DNA of 62,822 nt, filler included, from Sanchytrium tribonematis (lineage: Eukaryota), in the NCBI GenBank assembly GCA_018985235.1. It is 5 parts of 5 records of this genome, joined end to end, with 100 filler letters (N's around TTAATTAATTAA, not from the genome) between each part and the next. Parts side by side here need not be neighbours in the genome. Positions count along the whole stretch, not along the records: positions 1 to 12,556 come from JADGIG010000212.1; positions 12,657 to 25,139 come from JADGIG010000214.1; positions 25,240 to 37,718 come from JADGIG010000215.1; positions 37,819 to 50,282 come from JADGIG010000216.1; positions 50,383 to 62,822 come from JADGIG010000217.1. One strand, given 5' to 3'. The notes below the pieces were generated by a model that was not told the DNA's origin, made no database searches, and saw nothing but the letters and a program-made list of their open reading frames with translations. The position numbers and the translations under genes were made by a program. The stretch's first letter is position 1. Each line of letters opens with the position of its first letter. This document shows, piece by piece, positions 4,000-60,263 of the stretch.

Positions 4000-5215
4000 A
4001 TGAATCAAGAAAACCAGCCTCAACGAGTCTTAGCAGATAAAAGCAATATCAAGCCAGAATATGTTCAAGGCAAAAAGAGGGCTCATGCAGTCATGTTTCT
4101 CGATGCGAAAAAGACTAAAAAGAATAGAATTGATGCAGAGAATCAAGAAAATGCAGAGCCTCCCAAAAAAGTCGCGGAGAAGCCGAAAATTGCTAAAATC
4201 AAACCCATTATTCCTATACCAGTCAAAGAGACAGTTAAAGTAATAGAAAAGGTAACGAAAGAAGTAAAAGTAGTCGTCGAGTCTAAAATTTTACCGGACG
4301 AAAATCAAGAAAATGTTGCTCCTATTAATCCTTTTATCAAGGCAGAATTCGAAAATGATGAGGACGATGACCCTTTGATGTGCGCTGAATATATTTTAGA
4401 TATATTATCCTATCTTCGCAAACAAGAAGTGAAAACCCTCGCAAACGATTACACACATGCTAGTATTTCTACAACTGACAGGTTTCGTATTTCAAACGAT
4501 CTTATTGAAACTCATTATATGTTCAAGCTTTTACCCGAAACTATTTACCTCGCCTGCAACATTTTTGACCGAGTAGTCACTAGCTCAAAAGTATCTCGTG
4601 ACCAAGCAACCGCAGTAATGTTAGTAAGTTTATTAATCGCAGGAAAATACGACGAAGTCTCTCCTCCAACAGTCAGACATATTGTAAGAAGAGCTCATGA
4701 CCTTGGCTTAAAATTTCTTACTCAAGAAAAAGTCTATGATATGGAGAATGAAATTCTCGGCGCAGTTAGTTTTGACTTATCATATCCTAATCCGTTTAAT
4801 TTCTTGCGTCGTGCTTCAAAGGCAGATGATTACAATAGCGAAACAAGAACTGTTGCAAAATATTTTATGGAATTGTCAATTGTCGATCATCGATTGGTTG
4901 CGTATGCACCTTCTCGAATTGCCGCTGCTTCATTTTGGTGTGCTACCATGATCTTGCTAAAATGCAAGTGGGTATATTTAATTTATTTAGTCGGAGCAAT
5001 ATGAGTACTATTCGGGATACACTGAGGCTGCACTTTCAGAACCCGTCAATATTATGTTTGATTGTGTCAAATTTCTGCCGGAAAGATCAGTTCTTTACAA
5101 AAAATACAGCAACAAAAGATACCACAGAGTTGGTTTGTTTGTTAATAATTATGTCCAAGATTATTTGGCAAATGAAATTGATTATTTCGAGGCTATAAAA
5201 AAATTGGTATGTTAG
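4000..5215 (+). CDS. B-type cyclin, join(4000..4971,4991..5215)
   Basis: DPLMCAEY, LLPETIYLACNIFDR, KYDE, YPNPFNFLRRASKAD; removing the 19-nt intron adds the cyclin-B tail W|SEQYEYYSGYTE...KKYSNKRY. Confidence 0.9.
4972..4990 (+). other. 19-nt spliceosomal intron, phase 0 (GTATATTTAATTTATTTAG)
   Basis: GT-AG; removal restores the conserved cyclin C-terminal YYSGYTE/KKYS segment in frame. Confidence 0.88.
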
Positions 5216-5249
5216 TTAAAGGCAAGTAAGTAAATCATGTTTTATACAT

Positions 5250-6044
5250 ATGAAACCTAAGTTTGTGTTAAGGGGACACAAAGGTGCTGTCAAGTCGATT
5301 GACTTGCTAGGCAGCAATTTAATTTCATTTGGATTTGACGGAAATATACTTAATTGGAATCTCAAAACCCGCCGACAAACTGAAATGTGTTATGTGGGAG
5401 AAATAAGATTTGCGAAGGTATGGAAAACTTACATTGTTGTTTTAAACCATGAGAGCTTTAAAACTATTGCCCAAAATGGAGATCTTATAAACGAGATCAA
5501 AATTTTGCCTTCTATCACAAATTTTGATATTTTTGGTAGCACAGCTATATTAAATTTGAATGATACTATTGCTCTTGTAGACCTAAATAATATGAACGTG
5601 TTATCAAGTATCAAACCAGAAATTCCTCCAAGCTCATTTTTATTATTGGATGACTTGATTATTATTGGCCAAGAGGATGGCTCAGTGATGCTGACCGATC
5701 GCAACTTAAGATGCATTAAAATTCAAAATTGTCATGTCGAACCTGTTCTTGCGTTATGCTTTCACGAAGGCGTTGTTTTTTCTGGTGGACCCGACTATTT
5801 TATTTCCAAATATACTCAAGGTTCAACCGATCAAATTGTACTTCCGAGTAACGGAACTAGTGCTATAGCATTTGACGGCCAATTTGTATATGTATCTGGA
5901 TGGAAAGGCTTGTACGTTTTAAACAACTCCGGGGTGGTGGATTTCTTTCCAACAAAGCAGCCCTGTACAGTCATCAAAATCATTGACAATTTATTAATTT
6001 TGGCATGTGAAGACTCAAGAATATACGCATTTGATTTACTGTAA
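5250..6044 (+). CDS. WD40-repeat protein (Asa1/GNB1L-like)
   Basis: N-terminal PKFVLRGHKGAV, WD repeats, C-terminal LACEDSRI. Confidence 0.6.
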   Translation: MKPKFVLRGHKGAVKSIDLLGSNLISFGFDGNILNWNLKTRRQTEMCYVGEIRFAKVWKTYIVVLNHESFKTIAQNGDLINEIKILPSITNFDIFGSTAILNLNDTIALVDLNNMNVLSSIKPEIPPSSFLLLDDLIIIGQEDGSVMLTDRNLRCIKIQNCHVEPVLALCFHEGVVFSGGPDYFISKYTQGSTDQIVLPSNGTSAIAFDGQFVYVSGWKGLYVLNNSGVVDFFPTKQPCTVIKIIDNLLILACEDSRIYAFDLL

Positions 6045-6548
6045 GCTATACTCTATCAGATTTTCAAGCTGGCTGAAATTTGTACCATATGAGACTCCAG
6101 TATCTATAGTTTCCATCTCTCCACTTAGTTTGAGTGCCTGTATATGGTCTGATGTAAAAATGATACCTGAATCCATTTCGGGTTCCGCTTTGTGAAAATT
6201 AGTGCTGCTGATGATGTTTTGAATTTTAGGGAAATTGGGCTTTAATTGAAGCAAATAAAGCTCATAATATTGAATGACTTTTTCACAGTAATCGATTTCT
6301 GTTTTTGACATGTTGTGCTTGAAATTTTCAAGTAAATAATAAGGATATTTTTCAATCTTCTGCGTTCTGGTTACTTTGTATTGATTTATCAGATACTCAT
6401 TTCGCAAAATATCGTATTGAAGCACATCGTCATCTATTCTATCAGTGTTGAGTTTGGCTTTATCAATTCTTTGCTCAAGTTCCTCGACATCTTTGTGGTA
6501 CGGTTCAAGATGAGGATGTAATCTTTCATGATGAAGTGCTGCAAACAT
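6036..6548 (-). CDS. SLD5: GINS complex subunit Sld5
   Basis: ERLHPHLEPY (E..AP.LLPY-like) and YLINQYKVTRTQKIEKY (Y.R.R..KIEK) pattern; shortened and divergent. Confidence 0.7.
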   Translation of the reverse strand: MFAALHHERLHPHLEPYHKDVEELEQRIDKAKLNTDRIDDDVLQYDILRNEYLINQYKVTRTQKIEKYPYYLLENFKHNMSKTEIDYCEKVIQYYELYLLQLKPNFPKIQNIISSTNFHKAEPEMDSGIIFTSDHIQALKLSGEMETIDTGVSYGTNFSQLENLIEYSLQ

Positions 6549-6683
6549 TGGGGGTGATGGCGAAAACCTATTTGAATTATTTACGGCTTTTGCAAAGTGA
6601 GGAAGTGGTCCGAAAATTAGTCATAATGCCTCAATGAGCCATTGTCGAAAAACGATAATATTCAATTCCTAGGTTAGTTTTAC

Positions 6684-8577: not shown

Positions 8578-8735
8578 TTCTCCGTTGTACTGGAAGATAA
8601 CTTTATGAACAGAACAGACAAATTGCTGTTATATGATTGGACAGAAATTCTGTGATGTCTGCAATTTTCTTGGCGATGGATTGGTACAAGAGTCGTTTAC
8701 CAAAAAAGTGCTTAGAATCTATTTTTCGGACTAGT

Positions 8736-12656: not shown

Positions 12657-12782
12657 CTGAGTCAGATATAGATGGAGATGGTAAGCTTTCATATGCAGAA
12701 TTTGAGCATGTCATTCAGAGGTCTCCAAATTTTAGGAAGTAACTTTATTTAATTCAGCACTTTTACAATAAGACTCGTGTAA
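12657..12782 (+). CDS. CIB-family (calcium- and integrin-binding-like) EF-hand protein, 3' end only, join(<12657..12738,12758..12782)
   Basis: Not in ORF track; spliced translation ESDIDGDGKLSYAEFEHVIQRSPNFRNTFTIRLV* is an EF-hand plus CIB-type tail. Confidence 0.8.
12739..12757 (+). other. 19-nt spliceosomal intron, phase 2 (GTAACTTTATTTAATTCAG)
   Basis: Contains in-frame TAA; removal yields the CIB-type C-terminus SPNFRNTFTIRL. Confidence 0.82.
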
Positions 12783-12787: not shown

Positions 12788-13494
12788 TCAGTTCATGTTA
12801 ATTTTTTTAAACGACAATGCTTTATAGTTTTCATAAAGAGAGTCTATAAACTCATGGTCCTAAATTAATAACATAGCACCTGTAATATCCGGATCAATTC
12901 GCTTTCGAAGGAATATCGATCAAGTGGATTATAGTAATTTACCATGTATTCTGCCACATTAGATTTGACCACCTTTTGAATCTTTTCAGGCTCTGTTTCT
13001 AGTTCGACTTGTACTTTCGATTTTGCTCGTTGTAAAAGATCCATCAAAACATTACTGTTATCAGATCGATCTTCAAAGCCGGGAGGCCTATCCATTTCTG
13101 GTGTGGGTGGGTTCTCTGCCATTGTAATACCTTTCTGGGTGAACGAATACATCGTTTCTCTTTCTATGGAGTCGTGAATCCAAATTCCATATATTTTTTC
13201 TTTATCTTGAATCATAATATAGGGATCTTTATAGGTTACAACACAGTTTAAAAGTTCCATTTCAAAGTTTTCTAGATCCAATCTATTGAGCAAAAATAAA
13301 CCCGTATAGGAAATCTGACTTTTTCTGTATATAAACATTGGTCCTTCAATATTTAATTTTGACCACTGATTCTCATCTGTCATAAATTCATAAAGTACGG
13401 CATGTGATGCAGTATTCAAAATAGAAAGTATTTGTGCATTGAGACGCTTCAGAACACGCAAATTGATTTGGTATCGCAAATTGGGATGGACCAT
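12788..13494 (-). CDS. DCP1: mRNA decapping factor Dcp1, join(13494..12880,12859..12788)
   Basis: INLRVLKR, ASHAVLYEF, WSKLNIEGPMFIY, LNRL, IYGIW EVH1 domain; spliced tail LIRILQ|DHEFIDSLYENY resembles the Dcp1 C-terminal trimerisation helix. Confidence 0.9.
12860..12879 (-). other. 20-nt spliceosomal intron, phase 0 (GTGCTATGTTATTAATTTAG)
   Basis: CAG|GT donor, same TAATTTAG 3' end as the 19-nt class, in-frame TAA inside; removal restores the D..F+..LY..Y helix. Confidence 0.78.
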
Positions 13495-15133: not shown

Positions 15134-17300
15134 ATGTCTCTTGAAGATTTGACAGCCCCATTGTTATCTCCAAGCCTCAATGACAAGCCTAAAATAGAGC
15201 CATTTAATTCAAAAAGAAAAAATACCATTCAGAAGTTTAAAGGCTTGATTTCGATAATGTTTGGCAAGATTGAAATTGGTATTTTGATTTTGCATTCACT
15301 CTTATTAATATATAGATCTATATTGTCAGTTCAGGTTGCCCAACTTGATGGCTACATCGCAAATTATTTAATTAATCGTAAACTCAACAAATTTCTAGTT
15401 CACATTGGTTATTGGATGATTCTAAGTATCCCTGCAACTTTAACAAATTCGCTGCTCAACTATTTCCAAAACTACTTATCGTTGAGACTAAGAAATAATT
15501 TGACTCATCACATCCACAGCGTATATTTAAAAGATAAACTATTCTACAAAGTTTCTAATCTGGATGATAGAATTAAGAATGTTGATCAGCTAATAACGCA
15601 AGATGTCCTGCTTTTTACAAATCAAATAACAATGGTTTATAGTAATATTTTGAAGCCAGTTTTTGATGTCATAATGTACATGAGGCAATTAAGTTTAAGA
15701 GTTGGGCGGAATAGTGTGCTAGGTATTTTCGGCTGGGTTAATGCAACCTCAGTTATTCTGTATGCAATATCACCGGCATTTGGGTACTTGGTGAAGAAGG
15801 AGCAAATGCTAGAAGGAGAGTACCGTTATACTCATGCGAGATTAATCGAAAATCATGAGGAAATCGCATTGTTTTCTGGATATTATCAAGAAAGAAACAT
15901 ATTAATACGGTCATTTCAACAGCTAATGAAGCATGTCAAAACTATTTACTATAAAAGACTATTCTACACAAGTTTTGAGGAATTCATCATTAAGTATCTA
16001 TGGGGATGTGCTGGACTCATTATGTGTGGTTATCCGGTTTTTGAAAAGCAAATCAATTTTTTCATTCAATTGTTCTCTACCCAATTTAAAACCAACGGCT
16101 TTGCAGGAATTTGGAACGTATTAGGAAATGTGTCACAATTATCAAAATATATGAAAGACAGCAAACAGGGCAAAACTAGAGAGGCTCAAATGGAGATGGT
16201 AGCAAATAGAATGGAGCAATTTACTACAAACAGGCGTCTACTAATGAATGCAAGTGATGCCTTTGGAAGGATTCTGTATAGCTTTAAAGATGTTGCTGAA
16301 CTTAAAGGCTACACTGAACGCGTTCATGAACTAGTGAATGTTTTGGATGATGTAAGCAGAGGTCAGACAGTAAAACAGCTTGTTGGAGGTGACACTCTGA
16401 CAATTGCCAAGAGGAAGCTTTATCTGAGCAGCAGCGACAATTTGCAAAATACTCAACGGGACATTTCTAAATTTGATATTTTGAGAAATCGGGGTACTAT
16501 CAAAGACTCTGAGTATATTCAATTTGACCAGGTCCCTGTAATTTCACCTAATGGTGATGTTTTGCTTCGGTCCTTGAGCTGTTTTATAAAGAGTGGAACA
16601 CATGTTTTAATTATAGGACCAAACGGATGTGGAAAGTCGAGTTTATTTAGAATTTTAGGTGGTCTCTGGCCAGTATACGGAGGAGTTTTGTATAAACCTA
16701 CGGCTCAAGCCTTTTTTTATATTCCCCAACGTCCTTATCTTTCTGCTGGTACTTTCAGAGACCAAATAATTTATCCCCATACTCAAGCTGATATGAAGGA
16801 ATGTACTTTTCTTTAATTTAGTTGGTAAAACTGACACCGATTTGTATAATATTTTAAAAGTTCTCCAAATCGAAGGGTTAGCTGATAAGGAAAAATGGGA
16901 TACTGAAAAAGACTGGAAAGATGTTCTTAGTGGTGGTGATAAACAAAGGATAGCAGCAGCTCGTTTATTTTATCACAGTCCGAAGTTTGCTATTTTAGAC
17001 GAATGTACGAGCGCAGTATCAATGGACGTTGAGAGAATCATATACACTCATGCTAAGAAACTTGGCATAACATTGATGACTGTGAGTCATAGATCTTCGC
17101 TTTGGAAATACCATAATTATGTTTTGCAATATGATGGTAGTGGTGGTTATGTATTTTGTGAGTTGGATGCTGAAAAGAGACTTGCACTTCAGGAAGAAAA
17201 ACAATCAATAGAGCATCAGTTAGCAGGAATTCCAAAAATTGAACAACGTCTTCTTGAATTAACGCAAATGCTTCATGAAAGAAGAAATTCTCCAGTCTAA
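15134..17300 (+). CDS. Peroxisomal ABCD half transporter (Pxa1/Pxa2-like), join(15134..16802,16822..17300)
   Basis: [18 protein letters not shown]...EEIA, Walker [34 protein letters not shown]; the two ORFs are joined by a 19-nt intron. Confidence 0.95.
16803..16821 (+). other. 19-nt spliceosomal intron, phase 1 (GTACTTTTCTTTAATTTAG)
   Basis: In-frame TAA inside; removal gives [21 protein letters not shown] and joins the two halves of the NBD. Confidence 0.92.
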
Positions 17301-22751: not shown

Positions 22752-24852
<2,101 letters not shown>

Positions 24853-27899: not shown

Positions 27900-29093
27900 T
27901 TACTCCCACAATTTTAAAGTCTTATCCCAACTAGCAGTCAAAACTTTTGAGGACTCTTGAGGGTGCCATGCACAATCCATGACAACGTCATTGTGTTGCT
28001 TCAATTGCGATACTACTTTTTGTGTCTTCCAGCTCCAAAAGAATAATTTGCCATGAGAATCGCCACTCAATATAAATTTTCCATCCGGCGAAACATTAAT
28101 GTTGCAGCCATAACCTGCAATATCGTGGCCAGAAAATACTCTCTTTTTGGAAATTCTAAATTTATCTTTAGTGCCATAAACTAAAATATTATTTGAGAAT
28201 GATTGGCACAACATCCAATTACCTTCAGGATGCACAACGATGTTCGAAATCGAATTCAAGCCTGGCTCACTTTGATACGAAATTGCCAATGGAACATCGA
28301 ATTCAAAAACCCTCATTGTTTTGTCGTCTGCAGAAGACACAAATCGATTACCTTCATCCAAGAAAGTTAAAGAATTAATTTGTCCCTTGTGTTCTGCGTA
28401 TGTATGAATAATTTCATTTGCTCGAACATCAATTTGATAAATTTTCCTATCACTACATCCAACAAGTAATAGGTTTTCTTTTTGTGGATGGAACTTAGCT
28501 ACGTAGGGAATGCGATCAATTGTCCACGTAAAAATAGATTTTTCTTTCGAAATATCAAATATTTTGACATACTTATCAAAGGAAGCGCTTACAATCTTAT
28601 TTCCAGTGTGACTCCAATTTACATCTCGGACTCCCTTATTGTGACCAGCAATTGTAATGAGACATTGTCTTTCTTTATATATTTCCCATAATTTAATAGT
28701 ACAATCCATCGATGCAGAAGCAAATATATGACCATAGTTTGGGATAAATCTAGAGCAATTTACACCTTTCTTGTGACCTTTATAAGTAAATATACATTTT
28801 CTAGGCAATGTGCAAACTTGTTCATTTCCCACAGGTTTGAAATGATATTCCGATTTAGGCAGTTCAAGAACTGGTACATCGAAATGCTTTATATACTGTT
28901 CACTACCAGGTGTTATGTTTTGCTTTGATACTTGGACTTTCTCTGATTTAATGGTGTCAATCATAATCTCCTGTTCGATTTCTCGTTTCTTGTTGCGTTG
29001 CATAAGATTATACAGCTTGGGATTCATATTTACAAATTGATTACTTTGCTGTTGCTCTTCTTCTGAACTTGAGTAACCAACGATATTCATCAA
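27900..29093 (-). CDS. CDC40: Pre-mRNA splicing factor Prp17/Cdc40 (WD40)
   Basis: LPRKCIFTYKGH, RFVSSADDK, FSGHDIAGYGC, WHPQESSKVLTASWD. Confidence 0.93.
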   Translation of the reverse strand: MMNIVGYSSSEEEQQQSNQFVNMNPKLYNLMQRNKKREIEQEIMIDTIKSEKVQVSKQNITPGSEQYIKHFDVPVLELPKSEYHFKPVGNEQVCTLPRKCIFTYKGHKKGVNCSRFIPNYGHIFASASMDCTIKLWEIYKERQCLITIAGHNKGVRDVNWSHTGNKIVSASFDKYVKIFDISKEKSIFTWTIDRIPYVAKFHPQKENLLLVGCSDRKIYQIDVRANEIIHTYAEHKGQINSLTFLDEGNRFVSSADDKTMRVFEFDVPLAISYQSEPGLNSISNIVVHPEGNWMLCQSFSNNILVYGTKDKFRISKKRVFSGHDIAGYGCNINVSPDGKFILSGDSHGKLFFWSWKTQKVVSQLKQHNDVVMDCAWHPQESSKVLTASWDKTLKLWE

Positions 29094-30569: not shown

Positions 30570-33111
30570 TTACACTCTTGCCATGTCAGAAATAACTTGA
30601 AGCACATCTGGTATTCCAAATTCAATATCAATCCCACTATTAGGATAGCATTCCACTAAATTTTTGCTTATTCTTTCATGTTGAAAAAGAATGCCTTCTT
30701 GAAAACTTCTCCAAACCACTTGAAGTAACAATCCATGCTCACTAAATTGTTTTTCAACTTTTTTGTAAATACTTTCAACAGCTTTTTTAAACTCTTTTAA
30801 AGAAAAAGAATTTAAAATTCTTTTGGCTTGAGGCTTACTAAACTCTGCCTGATAGGACAATTCATGTGGTGGACAGTTGAGTTTTGCTGCCTCTAATTTA
30901 TCAAAAAATTCAAAAAGTTTTCCAAAACTCTTTTTCAACATACTTTGAACATATTGGTCTAATGATTTGGAATAGATTCCATGAGAAATTTTTGTAAAAT
31001 TGTCCAATGTTTGTATTTTTTTCGAATATGGCCTCAAAGTTGAATGAAGCTCATGCATGTTCGCTAAATGAATAAAAATTACTCATAGATAAAATTTGTG
31101 CATCAAAAGCATCCTTCTCGCAATCTACCGCTAGTTCTATTAATTTTACAAATTCTTTTCCTAAAATTTCATATGCATGAGCCGCCATACCTGTTATGCT
31201 TTGGTCTTGGTTGAAAACTAGATAGCTCTCAATTTTTTCAATAAATACTCCCAAAATTTGGATCGACGGGAAAACATCACTGTCTTTTTTCTTCCTCCAA
31301 TCTTCATATTTCGACTGAATGTGACCCAGCTGACGTCGAAGAAAATCATCCCAAGCACTTAGTAATCTAGATTTTACGTTATTGAGCCAATCTTGATAAA
31401 ATATAACATTGCAGCCTGAAAAGTCTTTGTATTTCGAAGAAATGATAACTATAAACTGAAAGATTGAAATTTCGTCATGCTTAATACCCTCGTCTATAAT
31501 TCTGTTGATTTCATTTAATAATGTGGGAAATATAGTCTGCATCAACGAGGAAAGGCGCTTCTCCACCTTGATATTTTCTTGCCTAGGTCTCTTTTCTCCT
31601 AATTTTTCTGTTGATAGCAAAATATTTTGCTCGACTATCTTGTTGAACGAGATATCACTTGAAAAGAAGAAAAGATCATCAAAAAAATTATGCTGACGTA
31701 CCAGCTTTGATGATATTGATGAAAGTAATTGATTTAAAACTTCTTCGTAAGGAATCAAATCTTTCGACTCTTCTAAAGTTGTGGAGCCTTTGTCATTATC
31801 TTTTCTCTTCTTGATTCGATCGATGGGCTTTTGTTTCTCAAGACCTTCAAATAAAATTGTTTTAATGAGAGTATTCACCTTTGACATTCGAGATTGTACG
31901 AACCGTTGGATGTCGTTTTGCCAAACACCATTCAAAACTTTCGCGACGTCCATATACAATTCTGAAAATTGTGAGGGATTTACTTCATTCATCCAATTAA
32001 GTAACTGATAGTACTGAGACAAAAATTCTTCCATTTCCACCATTGCTCGAAAAGTGTTGCCTGCGTTTCTTTTGGGATCTTCCAGATATCTTTTGGAGAT
32101 TGATTTTCCTCCATCAACTATGTGCCGAGAAAGGCGAACTGAGAGTTGAACATTGTAGGCATTTAAGTCAGACAACTTTTCTTGAACGCATTTTAACTTA
32201 AATTCATCTTGGGGTTTATGTAATTTTTGATAAATACTAACAACCACTGCTTTTACAGAGCCAAGATCGTCAGAAAGGTCTGCATTTTGAATCAGATATT
32301 TCTCTCTTTCGTCAATGTCAATACTTCCTAGCATTTCTTTCAGAGTTTTTAAAAGACTAGCTCGATTGGCAAACAAAATTTGAATTTTTTTATGTTCAGA
32401 TTCGATTGTGTTAACATTTTTAGAAAGATCCATTACTCTGGCATAGTAAGCCTCCAACCAAATCCCCATCCCGTTAAGATCGTCCATAGTTTCACTAAGC
32501 TGGTGCTGTAATTTTTTCTTGTTCTCTAATATTTCGACCATTGAATGAACATTAGCTGCTTGCAGCTGGTCCAATTCTTGATCGAGCTTATTTTTCATAG
32601 ATTCATAGCCATCACCATCTTGCCATATTTCACTCAATACAGAGTAATCCACTTTTGCAGCAGCATTTTCTACTTGGTCATCTTCCACCAAATTCTGAAA
32701 AACGTTAATCCGCTGAATTGAAACCTTGTCTTTAACAAGAGGCGGAACTTTAGCATACTTTTGACACAATTTTATCAGTTTTCCCATAAAGTGCTTCAAT
32801 TGTTGGGTATCATCTGTACAGAAAAACGCAGTCCGACTCAAGTGAAGCGCAAACGCAATGGGGTGAGTATATTCAATACTTTTTATATCATCGACGCTCC
32901 ATGTAGTGGAACTCTCCAAATCTTTGTCGGTTGGCTTTAATTTCACTAATAGCACTCTGTGCCCTCTACTAATTAAAACCAAAGTTCTTGAGTCTAAGGT
33001 CTTGGCAGTTTGAATAACTTGGTTTGGTTTCCTTCCCTTTGTGACATCTTTCCATATTTTGATGTGTGACTGAATATCCGTATTGCTTGGAAAAAGGGCT
33101 TTGTAATTCAT
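30570..33111 (-). CDS. SEC3: Exocyst subunit Sec3, join(33111..31083,31063..30570)
   Basis: N-terminal PIP2-binding-like domain (TWSVDD), EL..L..AN+.S, GKLFEFF, IYKKVEKQF..LLQVVWR..Q, CYP; two ORFs joined by a 19-nt intron. Confidence 0.9.
31064..31082 (-). other. 19-nt spliceosomal intron, phase 1 (GTAATTTTTATTCATTTAG)
   Basis: Removal gives QILSMTNMHEL, fusing the 693-aa and 162-aa ORFs into one Sec3. Confidence 0.9.
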
Positions 33112-39909: not shown

Positions 39910-40743
39910 TTAAGGGATCATATGCGAGTTTTTCGAGAAAGGATTCTTTTCATCTGGCTTCATGACAGAGAACGAGTGATTCACATGTGAATGTGTTGCT
40001 TCATCAGCTCGAATTGCATAAATTACATCTTTCATTGTAGCGTCTTTTTCCAATCTCCAATAGTGGATAGCAATCTCGGGCGCTGCACGATCTTTCCATA
40101 AATTGCCTTCCTCAATGTCTTTTAACGCATGAGTGTATGTTTTCACAGCTTCTTCTTCCAAATACCCTACCATCGCGTGGCAAACTTTGGGACTTAACAA
40201 ATATGCCAAAAAATAAATGTTATAGAATAACCCTTGGGTCAAAATCACCATTGCGCGAAATACGCCAGTGGGTTGCTTGATTTTAAGGAAAGTAAGAAGA
40301 TGCATTCTCTCATTTTCTGCTTCCTCTAATAAAGTGTGAATCCAAGCATTGTCTCTTTTCATCAATCTTAAACTTCTCAAGTGTCTTAATGATGCAGCTA
40401 CCATACCAGGGCAGCCTGCCACTGTTTCTAAGAAAATCATTCTTTGAAGCCATTTGTGTTCATTCATGTTCTTAGGGTAGCCTGTAGCCAAGTCAAATGA
40501 TCCACGAAGCAGCTTAATACCATAAAATCCGACTTTTTGATGCCATTTCTCTGGCTTGAGATGTTTAGGCTTGATACTTTTTACATAATCCGTAGAATAG
40601 ACTGGGTGCATCAACAAATAATCTTCCTCTACAGGTGCTACTTTATTTTCCTGTGTAGCTACCTTATGGATCTGATTGAATCTCTTCTGAGTCAGGCTTA
40701 AAGCACTTGGACTATAAATTTTAGGAAAAAGTGAACGAAACAT
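39910..40743 (-). CDS. AOX: Mitochondrial alternative oxidase
   Basis: LETVAG.PGMV, EAENERMHL, LEEEAV.TY, RADEA.H diiron motifs; presequence-like start MFRSLF at 40743. Confidence 0.97.
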   Translation of the reverse strand: MFRSLFPKIYSPSALSLTQKRFNQIHKVATQENKVAPVEEDYLLMHPVYSTDYVKSIKPKHLKPEKWHQKVGFYGIKLLRGSFDLATGYPKNMNEHKWLQRMIFLETVAGCPGMVAASLRHLRSLRLMKRDNAWIHTLLEEAENERMHLLTFLKIKQPTGVFRAMVILTQGLFYNIYFLAYLLSPKVCHAMVGYLEEEAVKTYTHALKDIEEGNLWKDRAAPEIAIHYWRLEKDATMKDVIYAIRADEATHSHVNHSFSVMKPDEKNPFSKNSHMIP

Positions 40744-44707: not shown

Positions 44708-46093
44708 ATGTTGAAAGGAGTAATGAGGCTTTCCAAATCGCTTTTAAGCAACGAAGATGCTAAATGGATTCAATTATCGAAGCTTAGCTACGGGATGAAG
44801 GGCAAGACTCATTTATGGGAAATGGCTGAACGAAAACATAAAAAAGCTGAAGTAGATGCGATTATAATTGCACCAATCTTGGTAAATAATGGACCACCTA
44901 AAACAATTTTGGCTTTACAATATAGACCACCTATTGATAAAATAAGTGTCGAATTTCCTGCTGGATTGACCGATGAAGGAGAGTCTCCAGAAACTACGGC
45001 ATTAAGAGAATTAAAGGAAGAGACAGGATATTCTGGAAAAGTTATTGCAACTAGTCCTGTTCTAAGCAGCGATCCGGGGCTTTGCAATTCTTTATTTCAA
45101 ATTGTTACGATTCAGGTAGATCTGAAGCATCCTGATAATTTAAATCCCACTCAATCCTTACAAGGTGATGAAAACATCGAACTAGAAATTATAGAGGTTG
45201 AAAAATTGTGGAAAACTCTGAACTCCTATAGTGATAAATACTGTGTGGATGGAAAGCTTTACCAATTCGCAATGACAATGAAACCTTTTCAATTAAATGA
45301 CACCCAATTACAATTTTATGAAGAAAATGGATACTTAGTAATAGAAGATGCTTTGCCAAACCATCAAAAATACCTTCAACACGCTATTCAGCTTTCACAA
45401 AATTTCGATCCTGATGAAACAACAGTTTTTTCTACTGATGAGTCTCAGCATACAAGAGACAAATTTTTTCTAAATTCTCACAATCAGATTAAATACTTTC
45501 TTGAAGAGAATGCTACGAAAGAACTTTTAAAAAGCGATAAAGGGAAGTGCGTCAACAAAATAGGACATGCCTTACATGCATTGGATTCAAAGTTTAAAGA
45601 ATTGAGTGATTCTGCTTTAGTTTATACGATCAGTCAGCAACTTGGTTTTAAGGATCCCAGCATTATGCAAAGTATGATAATCTACAAGCAGCCAAATATT
45701 GGTGGGAAAGTGAATCCACATCAAGACGGAACTTTTCTACATTGTGAAAAATTAGTGGGCTTTTGGTATCCTCTGCAAGACACAACTACTGAAAATGGTT
45801 GTATATATGTTGCACCCAAAAGCCACAAACATCCCGTGTCTAAGATTTTTGAAAGAAAAGGAGATTCTGTTGAATTTAAGGAACAATCGAAGCAATTGGA
45901 TCTCGAATATATTCCAGTTCCCATGAAAAAGGGCTCGCTTTTATTGATCCATGGCAATCTATATCATCACTCCAAGGAAAATAATTCAGATATGTCTAGA
46001 ATAGCATATACATTTCATGTTGCTGACGGAAAGTGGGAAGATTCTAATTGGATTAAAAAATCAGGGACTTCTTATTCATTAAATAAAATTTAA
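44708..46093 (+). CDS. Fusion: ADP-ribose pyrophosphatase (NUDT5/Ysa1-like) + phytanoyl-CoA dioxygenase-family (PHYHD1-like) domain
   Basis: QYRPP..EFPAGL.D.GE...ALRELKEETGY, DPG; then FYEENGYLVI, NKIGHALH, QSM.IYKQP.IGG.V.PHQD, H.S..N.S..R. Confidence 0.9.
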   Translation: MLKGVMRLSKSLLSNEDAKWIQLSKLSYGMKGKTHLWEMAERKHKKAEVDAIIIAPILVNNGPPKTILALQYRPPIDKISVEFPAGLTDEGESPETTALRELKEETGYSGKVIATSPVLSSDPGLCNSLFQIVTIQVDLKHPDNLNPTQSLQGDENIELEIIEVEKLWKTLNSYSDKYCVDGKLYQFAMTMKPFQLNDTQLQFYEENGYLVIEDALPNHQKYLQHAIQLSQNFDPDETTVFSTDESQHTRDKFFLNSHNQIKYFLEENATKELLKSDKGKCVNKIGHALHALDSKFKELSDSALVYTISQQLGFKDPSIMQSMIIYKQPNIGGKVNPHQDGTFLHCEKLVGFWYPLQDTTTENGCIYVAPKSHKHPVSKIFERKGDSVEFKEQSKQLDLEYIPVPMKKGSLLLIHGNLYHHSKENNSDMSRIAYTFHVADGKWEDSNWIKKSGTSYSLNKI

Positions 46094-47456: not shown

Positions 47457-48549
47457 AATTACTGTTTCAAGGAACTGTCTATGAATGGAACATTTGAAGG
47501 AATAGTCAGGCAATCAACAGGTGCAACAAACATATGCTGAATTACCGATGGCTAATATATCAATCGGCAGGCTATAATATCAGATTATCGTTATTTTTGA
47601 ACCAAATGAGCTAAAAGAGAAAGCCACTAGTCTATTCTCAGACTGCTACGATATTTACAATCGAACTTTAAAATTTTGAAAAGATTTTATTGATTTTGAA
47701 CTAGGAAACGAGAGTTGTAGCTGTAATTATTTTTTGGTGTCTGACCAAAAGTTTGTAAAAAGTACAACAGATTGGAGAAGCATTAAACAAAAATTCATTC
47801 GATATTTCTAAACACGTTTGACTAAAAGTTCGCCTTCTACTATGCCTTCTCTTCACCTTTGAATTAAATTTATTATTATTTGTGAATGTTTAAAATCGTT
47901 TAATATTTCATGGATACGACAGATTTCTTGAGTCTTAATGAATTGTTAAAAGGCCCCTACCTAATTTGTTTTTCATATCTCTGAACGACGTGGCATCCAT
48001 ATTTCGCTTTGTCAAAATGATAAAGGAAATGATTTCGTACAACTCCGGGAACATTTACAAGTATTGAGGTGTGTCTCCACAGCCAAAAAAACCAGTTGGC
48101 GATCAAGTGGTATTTCATTCTAACAGATTTCACAAGTGTCAAATCAGATATATAACTAAATATTACGTATTCTATACCGGGTAAAAAATAAATTTAAAGA
48201 TTTTGTTCTCTTAAAAATTAATTATGATGTTCAAATCGGATATGAAGTGAGCCTGCATGGTCAATAAGAAGCTTCACCGGCATATTTTTCGCAAAATGAA
48301 AGTTTGAGGCTCAGGAATATTTTACTAACGTCTCAAGCTGTAATTGAAATGGAAGGCGGGAAACACAATGGTGCATCTCGGACATAGATGACAACGTATC
48401 ACAAAGGTCCGACAAACATAAAATTTTTAAGGTTATACTCGATTTAAAGTAATATTTAATATCATACTCTGATTTAATTGTTTTCAAAAAGAATACCTTT
48501 TAAAAAGTTCCTACAATGGGATATTTGAATCCTTGTAGCAAGCCATGTT

Positions 48550-49401
48550 TTACAAAAAAGTCAAAGTGACAAGAATACCCAAATGGTCAGATGGGTATAA
48601 ATTAGGAATGGTATCAGAAATGAGATAAGTTCCTAAAAACTGAAAATCAGTGACTTTGAAGTACTTATTTTCTCTAAAAAGAAGTCGATCAATTCGTCTA
48701 TAATCCATTTCTTTAAGCGGCTGAAATTTGCCAAAGGTGAATCCATTTTCATTACCACCAATCTGATTTTTGTCCCGACATTCCCAACAGTCTTTCCATC
48801 CCAAACTGTACAAATAATCTGATTCTACTTGATCATTGTAAATATTAAAATCTCCACACAGTAAGCTGGTGTCATTATTCAGTAGACTTGCGGATTGATC
48901 CCACTGTGACTTTCTCTTTTCAAAATCTACTTCATTGGATTCAAAGTGCGAAGTTCCCACACTAAATTCCAAATTCCTGAAAGAAAAGGTCGCAACGAGA
49001 AGCGATCGACCCATTGCTGTAAGAACGAAATCATATTTTTTAAAGTTCAAAAGAGCAATTTCTCTTCTGATCAAAATAGCGCAACCATACCAATTTCCAA
49101 ATTGATTATCGTCTATTCCCGATAAGATGTACCTTTTTTGAATGACCGGCGACTGAGATAATATAGACAGAAATCCACTTGTGCATTCTTGAAGTGCAAC
49201 AATATCTGCATCTGTACTTTCAATTTCAGAAATTATTTTAGGAAATCTAATTTTGGAAGTTGATGCATCAAACCAAATATTCCAGCTTAATATTTTTAGT
49301 CGATCGCTAGAAAAATTTGTCTGCTTATAGTTATATTCTGACCACCCACTCTTTTTTATGGGTAAAAAACTATTTTTCCAAATCATTGGTTGCAATTGCA
49401 T
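48550..49401 (-). CDS. EEP-family phosphodiesterase (TDP2-like)
   Basis: ILSWNIWF, DIVALQE, MGR, SHFES, CGDFN, DCW, RIDR, PSDHLG; start uncertain (ATG 49401 or further upstream). Confidence 0.85.
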   Translation of the reverse strand: MQLQPMIWKNSFLPIKKSGWSEYNYKQTNFSSDRLKILSWNIWFDASTSKIRFPKIISEIESTDADIVALQECTSGFLSILSQSPVIQKRYILSGIDDNQFGNWYGCAILIRREIALLNFKKYDFVLTAMGRSLLVATFSFRNLEFSVGTSHFESNEVDFEKRKSQWDQSASLLNNDTSLLCGDFNIYNDQVESDYLYSLGWKDCWECRDKNQIGGNENGFTFGKFQPLKEMDYRRIDRLLFRENKYFKVTDFQFLGTYLISDTIPNLYPSDHLGILVTLTFL

Positions 49402-50382: not shown

Positions 50383-51028
50383 TTTAACGAATGCTGGTCA
50401 AAATTGCTGCAAACCGTCGTTAATATTTGTGCCAAAATCAATTTATGAGAAATTTGAAATATCTTTATGCAATTTTTGTGAAAAATACCCAATTATTCCG
50501 CTCTCAAATGAAGTTGTATTTGACAAATTTAACTTAGATACAAAAAATTTAGAATTGCATCCTGCTGTGAAAAAAATAGTGGTGAAATCTCAATTTTTAC
50601 AGAATCACGTTTTCTCAACAAACCCCATTTTGTATAAATTCAACGAATGTATAGAAGACAAGGCACCATTGTTTAAGGAGATTTTTGGACCAACTACAAC
50701 CTTAATTCTATATGACAATTTGACGGAAGTCTTGAAAATACTTGAAACCAACAAATACAAATTAGCTTTAGGCGTTTTTAGCTCAAATACCGCCTGGGCG
50801 CTTGATATTATATCTAAACTTAAATATGGGATGAACTGGATCAACGCGTACAACAACTGTCCTCCTGATTTAAGTTTTGGGGGTTCTGAATTTAGTGGAA
50901 CTGTTTGGTCTAAAGATTTAGGACGTCAGTCAATGTACTGCTTGACAAAACAAATCTCAGTCTATAATACATTTATTGATACAAAAAGAAATGGAAATGA
51001 TAGGGAATTAGTCGATGACAATTCTTGA
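50383..51028 (+). CDS. Aldehyde dehydrogenase family protein, 3' part
   Basis: Frame opens at the contig start with LTNAGQNCC (catalytic Cys), then EIFGP, Y.L..GVFS, G..WIN, SFGG...SG. Confidence 0.85.
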
Positions 51029-52302: not shown

Positions 52303-54571
52303 ATGGCAACAACCGCCAGTAAGAATTTTAAAAATCAAACAAATGCTGTTGAGGATGGTGATTTAAACCACTCTCCTGTCTATCGAGCAAATCCACAAAA
52401 TATGAATGGACAAGGCGCAACCTTAACCAGCAAATTATACAAAGCTCATCCCACCATGGAAAATGTAGACTCAATTCACACAGCCTTTAAATATGGATAC
52501 AATTTGGGCCCTAACAATCGATGTCTGGGAAGAAGGCAGGCAAATGGCTCTGATTTTTTGAAAAAATACAAGTGGTATTCATATGATGACATTGAAATTC
52601 TTCGAAATGCCTTAGGGAGCGGATTGATGCAACTAAGTGAAAACTACTGTGCTAATAATTTACCAGATTCAAAAAAATTCGAAAAAGGAAAAGAATTGAC
52701 GTCTGAAGCTTTAAGAAACATAGGAATCATGAGTATCAATAAGCCAGAATGGACAGTTTTTGATTTGGCATGTGCGGCCTACTCTAGGGTTAATGTTCCT
52801 ATATATGACACTTTTGGAGAAGATGCTATTGAACACATTATCAATCACGCAAACTTGGGAATTGTCTTGGCCACAGCAGACAAGCTTCAAAGCATCCTAT
52901 CTTGTGCAAAAAAATGTCCTTGCCTTAAGGTAGTAGTCTGCATTGATTCCTTTAGTGAGGCAGATCAGCTTGAGAGCTTTTTGAAGCTAGATAACTCTCA
53001 CCTTCAAATTTTCAAAAACGGAAAAATCTCATCTCCAAAATATAGCTCTGTATATAAAACACCATCTGAAACTGTTCCGCTGACGTCTGCTAAATTGAAG
53101 GACTACCTTCTGCTTCTAAAATCTTGGGCCATTAGCAATAATGTAAAATTTCTTACCTTTGAGGAAGTTTTACATTTAGGTCGCAACAAGCCTGTTCCAC
53201 ATATACCTCCTCTTCCAACAGACATTGCTACAATTTCTTATACCTCTGGTACAACTGGTATGCCTAAAGGTGTAATTTTATCACACCTAAATTTTGCATC
53301 GACCATTCAGTTTCCAGTCTTTGCGAATTTTAAATTTATGCCCGAAGAAGATTGCTTAATAAGCTATTTACCCCTAGCACATATTTTCGGTCGAGTTTGT
53401 GAGCTGTCTATTCTTGTTTGCGGTGCAAGGGTTGGATATTATAGTGGCGATGTTCTCCGTTTAGTTGAAGATATTCAAATTTTGCAACCAACATTTTTTC
53501 CTTCAGTTCCTAGACTACTGAATAGAATATACATACAAATACAGGAAGCTACAGTGAAAAGATCTGGAATTCTGGGATATTTGTTCAGAAATGCATTTGC
53601 TACTAAGATTGAAAATTTGAAACATAGGCAAAATTGGCACACTCTTATCGATAATTCACCTCTTTTTTCCAAGTTAAGAGCAATTCTTGGTGGTAAATTG
53701 AAGGTGGTAATTACAGGAAGCGCACCTATCGATGACTCTGTATTGACTTTTCTAAGAGCTTGTTTTGGATGTATATTTGTACAAGGGTATTTGTATTTAA
53801 TGAAGTTATGGGCAAACAGAAACATGTGCCGGAAGTTGCGTCTCTCTTCTTGATGATTATGATGCAGGACACACAGGGGTCCCAATTCCCTGCAATGAAA
53901 TTCGATTAGAAAGTGTACCGGAAATGAACTATAATGTTACAGATAAGCCTTTTCCTAGAGGTGAAATTCTGTACAGAGGCTACAACGTATTTAGTGGTTA
54001 CTGGAGGGATCCTCAGAAAACGAAAGAAGCACTCAAGGATGGATGGCTTTATTCTGGTGATATTGGCTCAATGGATAAATACGGAAGACTCCGAATCATT
54101 GATCGAAAAAAAAATATTTTCAAGCTTTCTCAAGGAGAGTATATTGCTGTAGAGAAAATTGAGGGTGTTTATGCAAAAAATAGTAACGTCATGCAAATTT
54201 TTATTTACGGGGACTCATTGGAAAGTTATTTAGTGGCAATTGTTGTTCCAAACCCTCCCGTGTTTGCTCAGTTGGTTCAAAAATTAAAGAATGTGACAAT
54301 TTCAGTACCACTAGATGCCACCAAGGCATATTTAGAAACTAACTTTCAAAAAATGTGCGAAGATCCAGCAATATCTGATGCCATTTTCGCTTCACTAAGT
54401 GAAACAGGCTCTAAAGCTAGTTTGAAAGGATTTGAGCAGATTAAAAAGATAAAATTGATTGCGGAACCGTTTTCAATCGAGAATGGGTTGATGACACCAT
54501 CATTCAAAACTAAAAGAAATGAAGCCAAAGTTTTTTTTCAAAACCAAATCAAAGAAATGTACGGAAAATAA
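52303..54571 (+). CDS. Long-chain acyl-CoA synthetase, join(52303..53786,53806..54571)
   Basis: YTSGTTGMPKG, SYLPLAH, TGSAP, QGYGQTE (after splicing), PRGEI, GWLYSGDIG, IIDRKKNIFKLSQGEYIA. Confidence 0.96.
53787..53805 (+). other. 19-nt spliceosomal intron, phase 2 (GTATTTGTATTTAATGAAG)
   Basis: Removal rebuilds the adenylation motif QG|YGQTE. Confidence 0.95.
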
Positions 54572-54579
54572 ATTTATTA

Positions 54580-56490: not shown

Positions 56491-56536
56491 CAATTGCAAA
56501 ATTCCAACACATATTTAAATTATGAATTTGCGCATT

Positions 56537-56617
56537 TGATTGGAAATGTATGATTGGACACGGAACAATTATTGTTGTCGGGAATTTAAAACAAAGGTAT
56601 TTGTACTCAATGATTGG
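56537..56617. promoter_or_regulatory. Three inverted CCAAT boxes (TGATTGG) in a divergent promoter
   Basis: TGATTGG at 56537, 56551 and 56611, matching the NF-Y/Hap consensus CCAATCA. Confidence 0.5.
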
Positions 56618-56703
56618 GTGGTAATTTGGACTTCAACGATATACAATAGCTTCTAATTTTGGGATATTTGATTCTTTCATGAATACTCCTAATTTCATAT
56701 TTT

Positions 56704-58429
56704 ATGTCAGACAAAATAGAGGTTGTCAATAATGAGAAAGAAAATATTAGTCTTTCTAAAAGCAAGCGGCAAGAATTTATAAACCAAATGAATAGTCTTT
56801 TTGAAGATGGACAAAACTATGTGCAAGTAATGAAGGATCTGCAATCAACCATCGAAGAACCCAAGGCGAAAAAAGTAAAGAAAGAGTCCTCATTTGATGG
56901 AACGTTAATGGATTTTCAAGAACTGGGTCTCAAATTTTTGTATAATAGCTGGATGTGTGGCATGAATGGAATTCTTGCGGATGATATGGGTTTAGGTAAG
57001 ACAATTCAATGCTTGGCATTTTTTGCAAAACTTTTTGATGGGAACACAATGGGAAGGGTACTAGTTATTTGTCCTAGTGCTGTTGTCTATAATTGGGTAT
57101 CTGAGGCAGAAAGATTCACGCCAGACATTCCAGTAATTATGTATTTAGGAAACAAAGCTGAGAGAAAAGCACTTTTTGGTAAAATGCCAAAAGATTGTAT
57201 CCTTGTCACTTCTTATCAGATTTACATGAACGATGCCAGTGTTATGAATGCTAGACGATATAATATTTGTGTCGTGGATGAGGCACACAGACTCAAAAAT
57301 CATAGATGTAAACTATCAACATTGATGGATGGAATGATAGCAGACGATAAAATCCTACTTACTGGAACTCCTTTACAAAATGACATTGTGGAATTATGGT
57401 CTCTTTTAAAATTTTGCCTTCCAAATATATTCGATAAGAGTTTCCATATCTTCGAAGATTGGATGGAGGAAATCAAAGATACCAAAGCCAAATCAAAGAG
57501 CGAGCTTGTATTTAAAATGAAAAAAATAATTGAGCCGCATCTTCTACGAAGAATCAAAAAAGATGTGTTTCCGGACATGTTAAACAAAAAGAGTTTCTTG
57601 GTTTATTGTCCAATGACAAAACATCAAAAGCACTTATACGACTCCACTTCAGACGGAGAAAAATTGAAGTCCTGCATACTCGAATATTTGGGATCATATG
57701 ACAAATTGGAAAGAACTTTGAAAGTGGCATTTGGAAAAATTAAAGCTGCTTCAGAAACTATGAGACAATTAAAAATTTGTTGCCATCCATTTTTGTACCC
57801 TGTTCTAGACATTAAAAGACCATTTGAATTGTATGAGGGGAGTGGGAAGTTCTGTGTATTGTTCCAGCTTCTAAGAAACTTGTTTGAAGATAAGGAAAAC
57901 AAAGTTATTATTTTTACTCAATTTGTTGACATAATTTACCTTATCGGAGAGGCCTGCGATTCTTTGGACTGGAAATACTCATTTTTAAGTGGCAATACCA
58001 AATTGGATGAGCGAGAGATTCAGATTGAAAATTTTCAAAATGATCCAGAAAATAGAATTTTCATTGCGACCACTCGAAGCGGTGGTTTGGGATTGAATCT
58101 AACATCAGCAAATCATGTAGTGCTCTATGATCTTGATTGGTATAATTTTATAATTTAGGAACCCACAAATGGACTGTCAAGGTGAAGATCGGGCTCACCG
58201 CTATGGACAGAAGCGGCAAGTATCTGTATATAGATTGATTACAGAAAGTTCGGTAGAAAATAGAAAATTCGACCGCGCCGAATTTAAATTGGAGCTTCAT
58301 AAGCAAATATTGGAAGAAGAGACCGAAAAATACACTATTGTAGGCAAAAAATTTAGAAAACTGCGTAATAATAGCATCGATTTTGAAAATCCTATTCTTG
58401 AAGACGACTTGAAAACGTTATTTATGTAA
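56704..58429 (+). CDS. SNF2-family helicase (HELLS/DDM1/Irc5-like), join(56704..58139,58159..58429)
   Basis: [46 protein letters not shown] (after splicing), EDRAHRYGQ. Confidence 0.9.
58140..58158 (+). other. 19-nt spliceosomal intron, phase 2 (GTATAATTTTATAATTTAG)
   Basis: Removal rebuilds the conserved SNF2 motif YDLDW|NPQMDCQ. Confidence 0.95.
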
Positions 58430-58444
58430 ACTTTGTACAATAAA

Positions 58445-58891
58445 CTATCTTAAAAACAATTTTAATCGAACTGCATCTGAGCCATTCATATAATATCTTT
58501 GCAAATATTTGTCTCTAATGAAACCAAAAGAGGTGTATAATTTCATTGCACCCTTATTTGATAACTCTGTCTCAAGAACTATTTCTTTGACGCCATCAAA
58601 CTTGTGAAAATGTAGTATAGCATGTTTGACTAACTTTTTTGCCAATCCCTGTCTTCTGTAGTGCGGCTCCACTGCCAGCATGGCTATGTACCCACGATTT
58701 CTATCTGATTCCAATCTGCAAATTAATCCTCCTGCCATTTGGTTCTGATCGTCATTGATTATCCAAGTCAATTCGGGCCAATTATGCAAAAAATAGCGGT
58801 ATGTATAAATAGAGTAAGGCTCGCTCAGTGATTTGTTGATAAGATTAACAAGTGGCTCAGTGTCAGTTTGTTGAAATTGCCTAATCTTCAT
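58445..58891 (-). CDS. MAK3: NatC N-terminal acetyltransferase catalytic subunit Mak3/Naa30
   Basis: LSEPYSIYTYRYF..NWP, RGYIAMLAV, LETE..N..A..LY..FGF.RDK.L.RYY.NG.DA.RLKL. Confidence 0.95.
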   Translation of the reverse strand: MKIRQFQQTDTEPLVNLINKSLSEPYSIYTYRYFLHNWPELTWIINDDQNQMAGGLICRLESDRNRGYIAMLAVEPHYRRQGLAKKLVKHAILHFHKFDGVKEIVLETELSNKGAMKLYTSFGFIRDKYLQRYYMNGSDAVRLKLFLR

Positions 58892-58915
58892 AATACAAAG
58901 GAGAAAATACTAGAT

Positions 58916-60263
58916 TTACTGAAAGTGGCTATAAGGTGTTGGGCTACTGGATGTTCGTTTATATTGTTTAGTGGAGTTTTTTGCGGTCAAAACTTTTTTT
59001 GAAGAGGCTCTGGAAGAATTCTTTGAGGGTGGTTTAGGAGTAGGATCATGGTAATCTTGGTTGTAATATAACAGAGGATTTCTGTCAGGTGTCGCATTAA
59101 CTAAGGAAGACGGATCAAAATACGGCACCGGATTCCTGTAAATATCCGGAGAAGACAGTACGGACCCGCCGACTGTTTCTGTTGGTGACGGCATATAATA
59201 TTGAGGCCGCTCACTTTGTATCGGAGAAACTGGCATGTATTGGGGCTGATCAAAAGATGCTGGACCAGGATGTAAATATATATTAGTATCAATAGGTGGA
59301 GGTAATTTTTGATACTGAGGTTGGTACTTATTCAAGGACTGTAAACTTTGCCTTTTGACATCCGCATACTCAAAATATGGATCCTCAACTTGAGGGTACT
59401 TCGGTTGGAGCATTCTTGAATCATTATGCTTCATAAGGTCTCTTTCGCTTATTATGTTGGTTAAACGTTTCTCAATTTTCACTTCTACATATTTCCGAAC
59501 ACTTCCTTGAATCACGCAAAAAAATAAAGGAATCAACAAAATATACGAAATAGCTAAAAATATTAGATTCAACACCCAAGATGCACACACTATTATCATT
59601 GAAAATATCGCCAGATTCTGCGTGTCTGACCAATTATTAGAAATATTCTTGGTGACATCGTATAATACGCCCTGTTTCCACAAAAAATATAGAGCTATAA
59701 AATTAAGAATTCTCCTAGGACCATCAGCTAGCAATAGCCTTAATTAATAATCAATACCGTTTCCAATTGGAAAAGTGGGTGTAAACAAAAAATGCAACAT
59801 GATCCGAAAATGACCTACTTTCTAAAATATGCTTGAAAAAGCAATAATGTTCATATCCCTTAATAGAATAATACCTTTGAGCCAATTTTGATGTGAATGA
59901 CTTTGCAATGTGACCAGACTGAATGATCCGATAAGCACGAATCATGTCAAAGCTTAGTAAAATTAGAGTTATGATAATGCAAAGAATATAAACAGGTGCA
60001 TATAGCATCTTTAAGTAGATTTCAAATGAAAAATTGGAGTTCGTTTTTAATAATGAGTTGAATGAATTCGAGTTAAACGCGGAAATTCCTAAAAATATTC
60101 CAATGAAAATATCGGTCATGAGAATAAATATTGATTTAAATATTAATAGATACATAAATATGTAAGTGATTATGTATTTGAGAGATCTGAAGCGGTCCAA
60201 TTTGATGTCCTCGTATGTATAATTGACTGTGAAATAATTTTTCCATTTATTCACCAAACACAT
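58916..60263 (-). CDS. Kch1/Kch2-like fungal membrane protein, join(60263..59758,59738..58916)
   Basis: A.RII.SG.IA.SF, RYYS...Y..YCFF, VAFFVY..F.NWKR|LLLADGPR..N, I.G....Y...KI.KR; Pro-rich tail. Confidence 0.82.
59739..59757 (-). other. 19-nt spliceosomal intron, phase 2 (GTATTGATTATTAATTAAG)
   Basis: In-frame TGA inside; removal gives NWKRLLLADGPRR and joins two ORFs. Confidence 0.9.

Follow-up and report, generated by a model that had tools for sequence, protein, structure and literature searches.

Nine 19-20-nucleotide GT-AG segments in genes of a sanchytrid fungus as putative spliceosomal introns with a predicted fixed branch site

Nine short segments interrupt genes in the window

A 62,822-nucleotide (nt) stretch of the Sanchytrium tribonematis assembly GCA_018985235.1 (the window in what follows) carries nine GT-AG segments of 19 or 20 nt inside protein-coding genes, and these are very probably real spliceosomal introns. 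The window is made of five pieces of ~12.5 kb separated by N spacers, has a G+C content of 35% and is compact, with 54 modelled coding sequences taking up 92% of its DNA and intergenic spacers that are often below 50 nt. On the coding strand all nine segments start with GT and end with AG (19 nt in eight, 20 nt in one), G+C is 0.096 in their interiors and 0.355 in coding DNA, and a frame left unspliced reaches a stop within 1-27 codons in each of the nine. An earlier note on this DNA had listed these same nine segments, in all three phases and on four of the five pieces, and we find its positions, lengths, phases and piece assignments to be correct throughout (Table 1). Each kb of coding DNA has about 0.14 introns on average, and all nine introns known from these 62 kb lie within a few bases of one another in length and below ~22 nt. 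The explanation that we favor, and which we hold to be probable on the sequence evidence, is that they are ordinary major-spliceosome introns of a sanchytrid fungus which have shrunk to a narrow band of lengths around 19 nt, some of them at least being derived from old fungal introns.

On removal of the segments, the translated proteins align across the junction without a gap to 119 of 124 proteins for GFAT, 111 of 120 for the acyl-CoA ligase and 115 of 121 for the ABCD transporter. For Dcp1 the alignment over the junction is gap-free in 13 of 150 proteins, only 15 of the 150 extending that far; here the spliced tail fits the C-terminal helix seen in many Dcp1 homologues whereas the unspliced tail matches only two relatives, and a PDB search with the last exon was uninformative. 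Pfam positions run on exactly in Cyclin_C, KCH and AMP-binding, and Sec3_C-term is found on both Sec3 exons in an approximate register. In the SNF2-family gene, exon 1 matches Helicase_C to its final residue and exon 2 matches ISWI-family chains (different ones) from the first residue; both here and in Sec3 the proposed GT-AG pair is the sole frame-restoring pair in the range searched. It may be noted that the EF-hand gene, which may resemble CIB proteins, gave just calmodulins among the 60 PDB matches listed for its family, which was uninformative for the junction. The claim that removal restores conserved motifs exactly therefore stands for seven genes and is approximate for Sec3; the EF-hand gene, with a last exon of 8 codons, is the weakest case.

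When the nine segments are aligned by their 3′ ends, T at -8, A at -6 and T at -5 occur in every one of them, and eight of nine start with GTA. On shuffling the interiors (200,000 trials) any all-A column was obtained with P=0.00027 and three invariant columns including an A with P=0.00001. This motif, which is absent from the earlier note, is predicted to mark a branch-type A held at a constant six bases from the 3′ end, and the fixed quantity would be the distance from this branch point to the AG rather than the total length. The position at -6 is alike in Stentor, where the branch A is the 10th base of 15-nt and the 11th of 16-nt introns (PMC9505925), and in Yarrowia, where 2 nt separate the branch motif from the AG (PMC2483917).

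Contigs re-assembled from run X1 (a DNA run; depth 186-380) carry all seven segments compared without a gap, those at 4972 and 31064 being outside the comparison, and six of the seven are bridged by at least 31 letters on either side. Therefore an assembler slip, one of the outcomes by which the earlier note was to be refuted, is excluded. As X1 is possibly the window's own sample, it is not independent and library artefacts would still pass, which together with the small AT-rich genome speaks for the view that the segments are no introns at all but artefacts of assembly or amplification, or frameshifted pseudogenes. Yet breaks at the same codon recur in separately assembled relatives (see below), both exons are conserved, and every segment has GT-AG ends and an A at -6; already largely refuted, this view is now extremely improbable.

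Table 1. Putative introns of the window. Numbers on either side of a slash are Pfam profile positions before and after the junction; relative position is along the coding sequence (CDS).
Coordinates	Strand	Length (nt)	Phase	Gene (span)	Predicted branch A	Relative position	Remark
4972..4990	+	19	0	B-type cyclin (4000-5215)	4985	0.81	Cyclin_C 64/66, exon 2 residue 1 = 65
12739..12757	+	19	2	EF-hand gene, cut by piece end	12752		8 codons before stop; weakest case
12860..12879	-	20	0	Dcp1 (13494-12788)	12865	0.90	spliced tail matches homologues
16803..16821	+	19	1	peroxisomal ABCD (PXA-type) transporter (15134-17300)	16816	0.78	
22992..23010	-	19	0	GFAT (24840-22752)	22997	0.89	break shared by relatives
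31064..31082	-	19	1	Sec3 (33111-30570)	31069	0.81	Sec3_C-term on both exons, 184+15/210
53787..53805	+	19	2	long-chain acyl-CoA ligase (52303-54571)	53800	0.66	AMP-binding 314+3/319
58140..58158	+	19	2	SNF2-family helicase (56704-58429)	58153	0.84	
59739..59757	-	19	2	KCH potassium transporter (60263-58916)	59744	0.38	KCH 144/146, split codon 145

Placement of the window genome

For GFAT the cluster of closest relatives includes Amoeboradix gromovi (P0122, 88% identical to the window protein), which is also one of the two nearest relatives for the ABCD transporter (P0246) and the acyl-CoA ligase (P0127). In trees of GFAT (24 rows) and of ABCD (21 rows), the window, A. gromovi and environmental relatives form one group with 100% support in the Shimodaira-Hasegawa-like approximate likelihood-ratio test (SH-aLRT). 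Judged by these proteins, the window genome is that of a sanchytrid (Sanchytriomycota) distinct from A. gromovi, which bears out the claim of a fungal-type nuclear genome in Holomycota. Both single-gene trees leave the sister group of this clade unsettled, the ABCD tree with a warning of long-branch attraction, so the link to Blastocladiomycota is taken from the genome paper, which describes Sanchytriomycota as small-genome algal parasites sister to that group (PMC8371127). Nine of the relatives (P0001, P0121, P0123, P0124, P0126, P0247, P0248, P0365 and P0366) represent several environmental sanchytrid-like lineages on metagenome contigs of up to 77 kb. A metagenome scan with P0121 returned 80 loci with a best identity of at most 73%, and sanchytrid DNA was not found in it. 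Also, the three sanchytrid acyl-CoA ligases (window 52303-54571 on the + strand, P0126 and P0127) share a coding insertion of ~45 residues that is absent in other fungi and may serve as a clade marker.

Shared break points and intron lengths in relatives

Proteins of relatives that were called from genomic sequence break at the same codon as the window genes in four cases for GFAT (P0001, P0122, P0123 and P0124), in two for ABCD (A. gromovi P0246, and P0248) and in two for Dcp1 (P0365 and P0366), and the first residue after each break is compatible with a GT donor in the correct phase. The shared positions reach proteins as distant as 51% identity. To obtain lengths, the read-through peptide was fitted to the second exon, a procedure which returned 19 for the window's own control. 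For GFAT this gave 19 nt in P0001 (0 of 12 codons mismatched), only 22 nt in P0123 (1 of 21 mismatched), 21 or 22 nt in A. gromovi and 18 or 19 nt in P0124; for Dcp1 it gave 19 nt in P0366, with 1 of 300 shuffles scoring as well. An A at -6 is required by the peptides of P0001 and P0123, by both readings of P0124 and by the 21-nt reading of A. gromovi, its 22-nt reading being without it, and in P0366 it follows by hand from the peptide residues. Precise absence of an intron is also seen, for ABCD in P0247 (exact register) and for the acyl-CoA ligase in P0126 and A. gromovi P0127. The partial Blastocladiella protein P0141 ends near the acyl-CoA ligase junction and, being ambiguous, was not counted.

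Since the homologous introns are estimated at 19, 19 and 22 nt, the length is narrow but not rigid. The earlier note had proposed a length-measuring spliceosome, that is, the same introns read by a strict ruler which accepts only 19 (+1) nt. Eight of nine segments at 19 nt would be a rare outcome if lengths were uniform over 18-22 (P about 0.0001), and 19 nt also comes out in P0001 and in the distant P0366, as a ruler would have it. But the 22-nt homologue in P0123 argues against an exact ruler, as do the 21 or 22 nt of A. gromovi at the homologous site and the 20-nt intron of the window itself. Also, cryptic 19-nt sites are not depleted in the 54 coding sequences relative to synonymous shuffles (6 vs 4.9±2.0; 1 vs 3.0±1.5), a test of low power. 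A strict ruler is thus unlikely and that proposal is not sustained.

Age and position of the introns

A 52-nt GT-AG intron lies at the same GFAT site and in the same phase in a non-sanchytrid fungus (L004, L007), and therefore the GFAT intron is likely the product of shrinkage and not a new arrival. In L004 (2500-4420) about six short introns, one of them apparently GC-AG, can be made out by eye in this part of GFAT, of which the window retains just this one. Protein P0347 suggests that the ABCD position, too, is shared with a conventional intron elsewhere. These observations bear on a recent insertion of the segments, either as a small introner-like mobile element or by duplication. Presence is patchy, the acyl-CoA ligase intron being found only in the window organism and the ABCD intron missing in P0247, and the 3′-biased positions differ from those of most surviving old introns, both of which would suit insertion. 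However, the GFAT position is common to the 52-nt intron of another fungus, positions are shared by the distant proteins named above, every pair of introns differs in their 15 interior bases at 4 or more places, and no repeat is common to the 6-nt flanks, so that the near-identical copies with flanking repeats of introner or transposon-derived introns are not seen; recent insertion is very unlikely. As regards the independent origin put forward in the earlier note, the shortening does appear independent of that in ciliates, nucleomorphs and microsporidia, but in view of the 52-nt GFAT intron "origin" is better taken to mean that old introns shrank.

Of the nine introns, seven fall in the last quarter of their gene (P=0.0013), the intron of the cut EF-hand gene lying close to the stop; a Kolmogorov-Smirnov test on the eight whole genes gave P=0.006. 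It may be noted that the test is post hoc, that n is small, and that introns near the 5′ end are more easily overlooked. Screening 55 start codons for missed 5′ introns gave 31 AT-rich GT/GC..AG joins, none of them convincing by eye. The apparent bias runs counter to what is usual in intron-poor genomes: fungi lose 3′ introns preferentially (PMC8476143), and the introns of Stentor (PMC9505925) and the first-described ones of Encephalitozoon (PMC6349667) are 5′-biased. The surviving 5′ bias of genomes that lost introns through reverse transcriptase is thus not seen in this small set. If true, retention at the 3′ side would imply a force opposite to reverse-transcriptase-driven loss, e.g. coupling of the last intron to 3′-end formation where there is almost no intergenic DNA. 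As a whole, the proposition that spliceosomal introns are shorter in Sanchytriomycota than in all other fungi and in animals, with a mode of 19 nt and the branch A fixed at -6, and that they were kept near gene 3′ ends unlike in the intron-poor genomes compared, is offered tentatively, with the balance of probability somewhat against it.

Points against the favored explanation

Several points weigh against shrunken spliceosomal introns. A blind scan for AT-rich GT..AG stretches gives a weak excess at 19 nt (57 observed vs 45.9±5.5 expected), and with GTA..TAG it does not single out this length, there being 12 vs 4.2±2.2 at 19 nt and 12 vs 4.1±2.7 at 16 nt; the unexplained excess at 16 nt vanishes when the branch motif is required and in coding DNA. 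Therefore the case rests on homology, on the break points shared by relatives and on the invariant A at -6. A scan with the branch motif (8 vs 1.1±1.4 at 19 nt) is circular and was not counted as evidence. The motif is also insufficient alone, as in-frame 18-nt matches to it in GFAT, GWT1 and Prp17 proved to be coding on alignment and were rejected as introns. Further in-frame candidates that match the motif lie at 10796, 15038, 21658 and 57508, and one at 62439 gave no PDB match. Also, the introns number only nine in 62 kb, and a longer minority elsewhere in the genome is possible; the lengths in relatives derive from peptides, not DNA; an ancestral position is demonstrated for GFAT alone; and the acyl-CoA ligase intron, absent in both relatives seen, could be a gain. 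Excision from the pre-mRNA is what we infer from the sequence, the motif, the restored frames and the shared positions. P0121, a protein from a 1,663-nt contig with 3 differences from P0123 in the 441 residues ahead of the GFAT junction, reads through the junction in spliced form, and is either a transcript or an intron-less genomic copy; the latter may apply because precise absence occurs in the clade (P0247; P0126, P0127).

Proposed splicing mechanism

The segments have the characters of U2-type introns. They have GT...AG boundaries in nine of nine and a branch-point adenosine motif near the 3′ end that recurs in relatives, their precise removal restores a homologous protein as described, and the position is shared with a conventional fungal intron for GFAT (suggestively for ABCD). 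A spliceosome is encoded as well: the second-step factor Prp17/CDC40 lies in the window at 27903..29090 (-), matching residues 211-579 of a 579-aa Prp17 chain with E=6e-103, and the A. gromovi annotation lists Prp8, U2AF, BBP and SNRNP40 (PMC8371127 supplement). The claim that this fungal nuclear genome has tiny introns of spliceosomal type is thus supported by ends, branch A, register and shared positions. The window Prp17, at 396 aa, is without much of the usual N-terminal part, which points to an N-terminal reduction. The window gave no Rfam match, no tRNA match and no gene for a small nuclear RNA (snRNA).

In the mechanism that we propose, U1 and U6 would read the short GTA donor and U2 would pair with the T-rich T-N-A-T site, bulging the A at -6. 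Branching would then give a 14-nt lariat loop with a 5-nt tail, and the AG directly behind the branch site would be used, there being no space for a pyrimidine tract. Total length would be the sum of a fixed 3′ module and the loop from the 5′ site to the branch, with deletion bias pushing the loop to a steric floor (14-17 nt across relatives) and no exact ruler. Such a floor model, with deletion bias and a sharp mode with some spread, has been proposed for Mikrocytos (PMC10245619).

All nine lengths shift the frame if retained, and would therefore suit removal of the unspliced, frameshifted RNA by nonsense-mediated decay. Lengths that are never multiples of three would also fit segments that are retained in the mRNA and skipped by the ribosome, or that are cut out by a non-spliceosomal nuclease such as IRE1, and the size is like that of IRE1-type fungal introns (~20 nt). 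Against these stand the GT-AG ends with a branch-type A in nine of nine, the position shared with a conventional 52-nt intron, and the occurrence in nine unrelated housekeeping genes; bypass or IRE1 cleavage has hardly any chance of being correct, and spliceosomal removal is kept.

Comparison with known ultrashort introns

The earlier note named heterotrich ciliates and chlorarachniophyte nucleomorphs as the holders of such introns, and these comparators hold; its list leaves out Mikrocytos (16-17 nt) and myxozoans (median 22 nt). The 15-16-nt introns of Stentor coeruleus and other heterotrichs (PMC9505925) resemble the present ones in being GT-AG and AU-rich, with a GUA donor, a branch A at -6, a 5-nt tail, a very narrow length and a minority of genes that bear introns, but the sanchytrid introns are 19-20 nt long with a loop of 14-15 rather than 10-11 nt, belong to a fungus, and are 3′- instead of 5′-biased. 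Nucleomorph introns of 18-21 nt (PMC10245619; PMC2483917) have the same size range of about 19 nt, a donor reduced to GT(A) and a compact genome in common with them; however, nucleomorphs are intron-rich and no branch-point signature is reported for them, whereas the sanchytrid introns are sparse, carry a fixed branch-type A and are located in the cell's own nucleus. Mikrocytos mackini (PMC10245619) is likewise a parasite with few introns of uniform tiny size; it is a rhizarian with a highly conserved intron sequence and with no introns in metabolic or transporter genes, unlike in the window, where GFAT, the acyl-CoA ligase and two transporters have introns.

Encephalitozoon cuniculi, with introns of about 25 nt (PMC6349667; PMC2483917), shares with sanchytrids the placement in Holomycota, a reduced genome, GT-AG ends and a TAAYTT-like branch sequence. 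Microsporidian introns are longer, though, and the first-described set is strongly 5′-biased and rich in ribosomal-protein genes, while sanchytrids are a separate lineage, sister to Blastocladiomycota (PMC8371127). The intron-poor Yarrowia, Trichomonas and Giardia keep a fixed distance between branch point and AG (PMC2483917), and resemble sanchytrids in the missing pyrimidine tract and a branch site anchored to the AG (at -6 as in Yarrowia), but they have a strong ACTAAC-type consensus and the introns of Yarrowia are long. The short introns of myxobolids and dicyemids (median 22-27 nt; PMC13644364), again from parasitic opisthokonts in which the donor is GTa and a pyrimidine tract is missing, are longer, and their putative branch As shift with intron length.

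Sanchytrids are thus possibly a fungal addition to the known ultrashort introns, with a 3′-biased arrangement that would be new. If true, this would be an independently evolved fungal case among the handful of systems that show how short a spliceable intron can be, with 19 nt lying below both the myxozoan animal record (median 22 nt) and the microsporidian ~25 nt, and with the branch geometry of Stentor repeated in a distant lineage. The natural 19-22-nt variants of one homologous intron would allow a direct test between ruler and floor, and the apparent 3′ bias would contradict the usual pattern of intron loss.

Consequences for annotation

For all eight intron-containing genes looked up in EukProt a truncated read-through protein is on record, which confirms that gene callers miss such introns, and the GFAT and ABCD proteins of A. 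gromovi are likewise truncated on record. In the sanchytrid genome paper, proteins were called by TransDecoder on genomic contigs, and the word "intron" appears there only in a reference title (PMC8371127). As the sanchytrid proteomes come from an intron-unaware finder of open reading frames (ORFs), public sets hold truncated or split proteins for roughly every seventh gene of the window (8 of 54), and such proteins can distort claims on gene content and gene loss in Sanchytriomycota. The literature searched, which included PMC10459994 and PMC13262936 by term search and left most subscription papers outside, gave no account of sanchytrid nuclear introns; sanchytrid introns of 19-20 nt are apparently unreported, and the shortest found described in fungi.

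Other observations in the window

Run X1 also yields short second-allele contigs at 50445-50575, 54377-54490 and 58291-58412, with five clustered differences each, two of the three standing beside a matching contig of two to three times their depth; they may reflect mixed individuals or heterozygous patches. A stretch of ~1 kb (47513-48550) has no ORF above 80 codons and no Rfam match, in a window that is otherwise 92% coding. A kinase-WD40 gene at 33275-36835 (+), which resembles Vps15, has a kinase match that starts at profile position 22, and no intron candidate upstream accounts for the missing start. At 44708-46093 (+) a single ORF of 461 codons holds a NUDIX domain and, downstream of it without an intervening stop, a PhyH dioxygenase domain, being either a natural fusion or a case of a lost stop, and an alternative oxidase gene is found at 39910-40743 (-).

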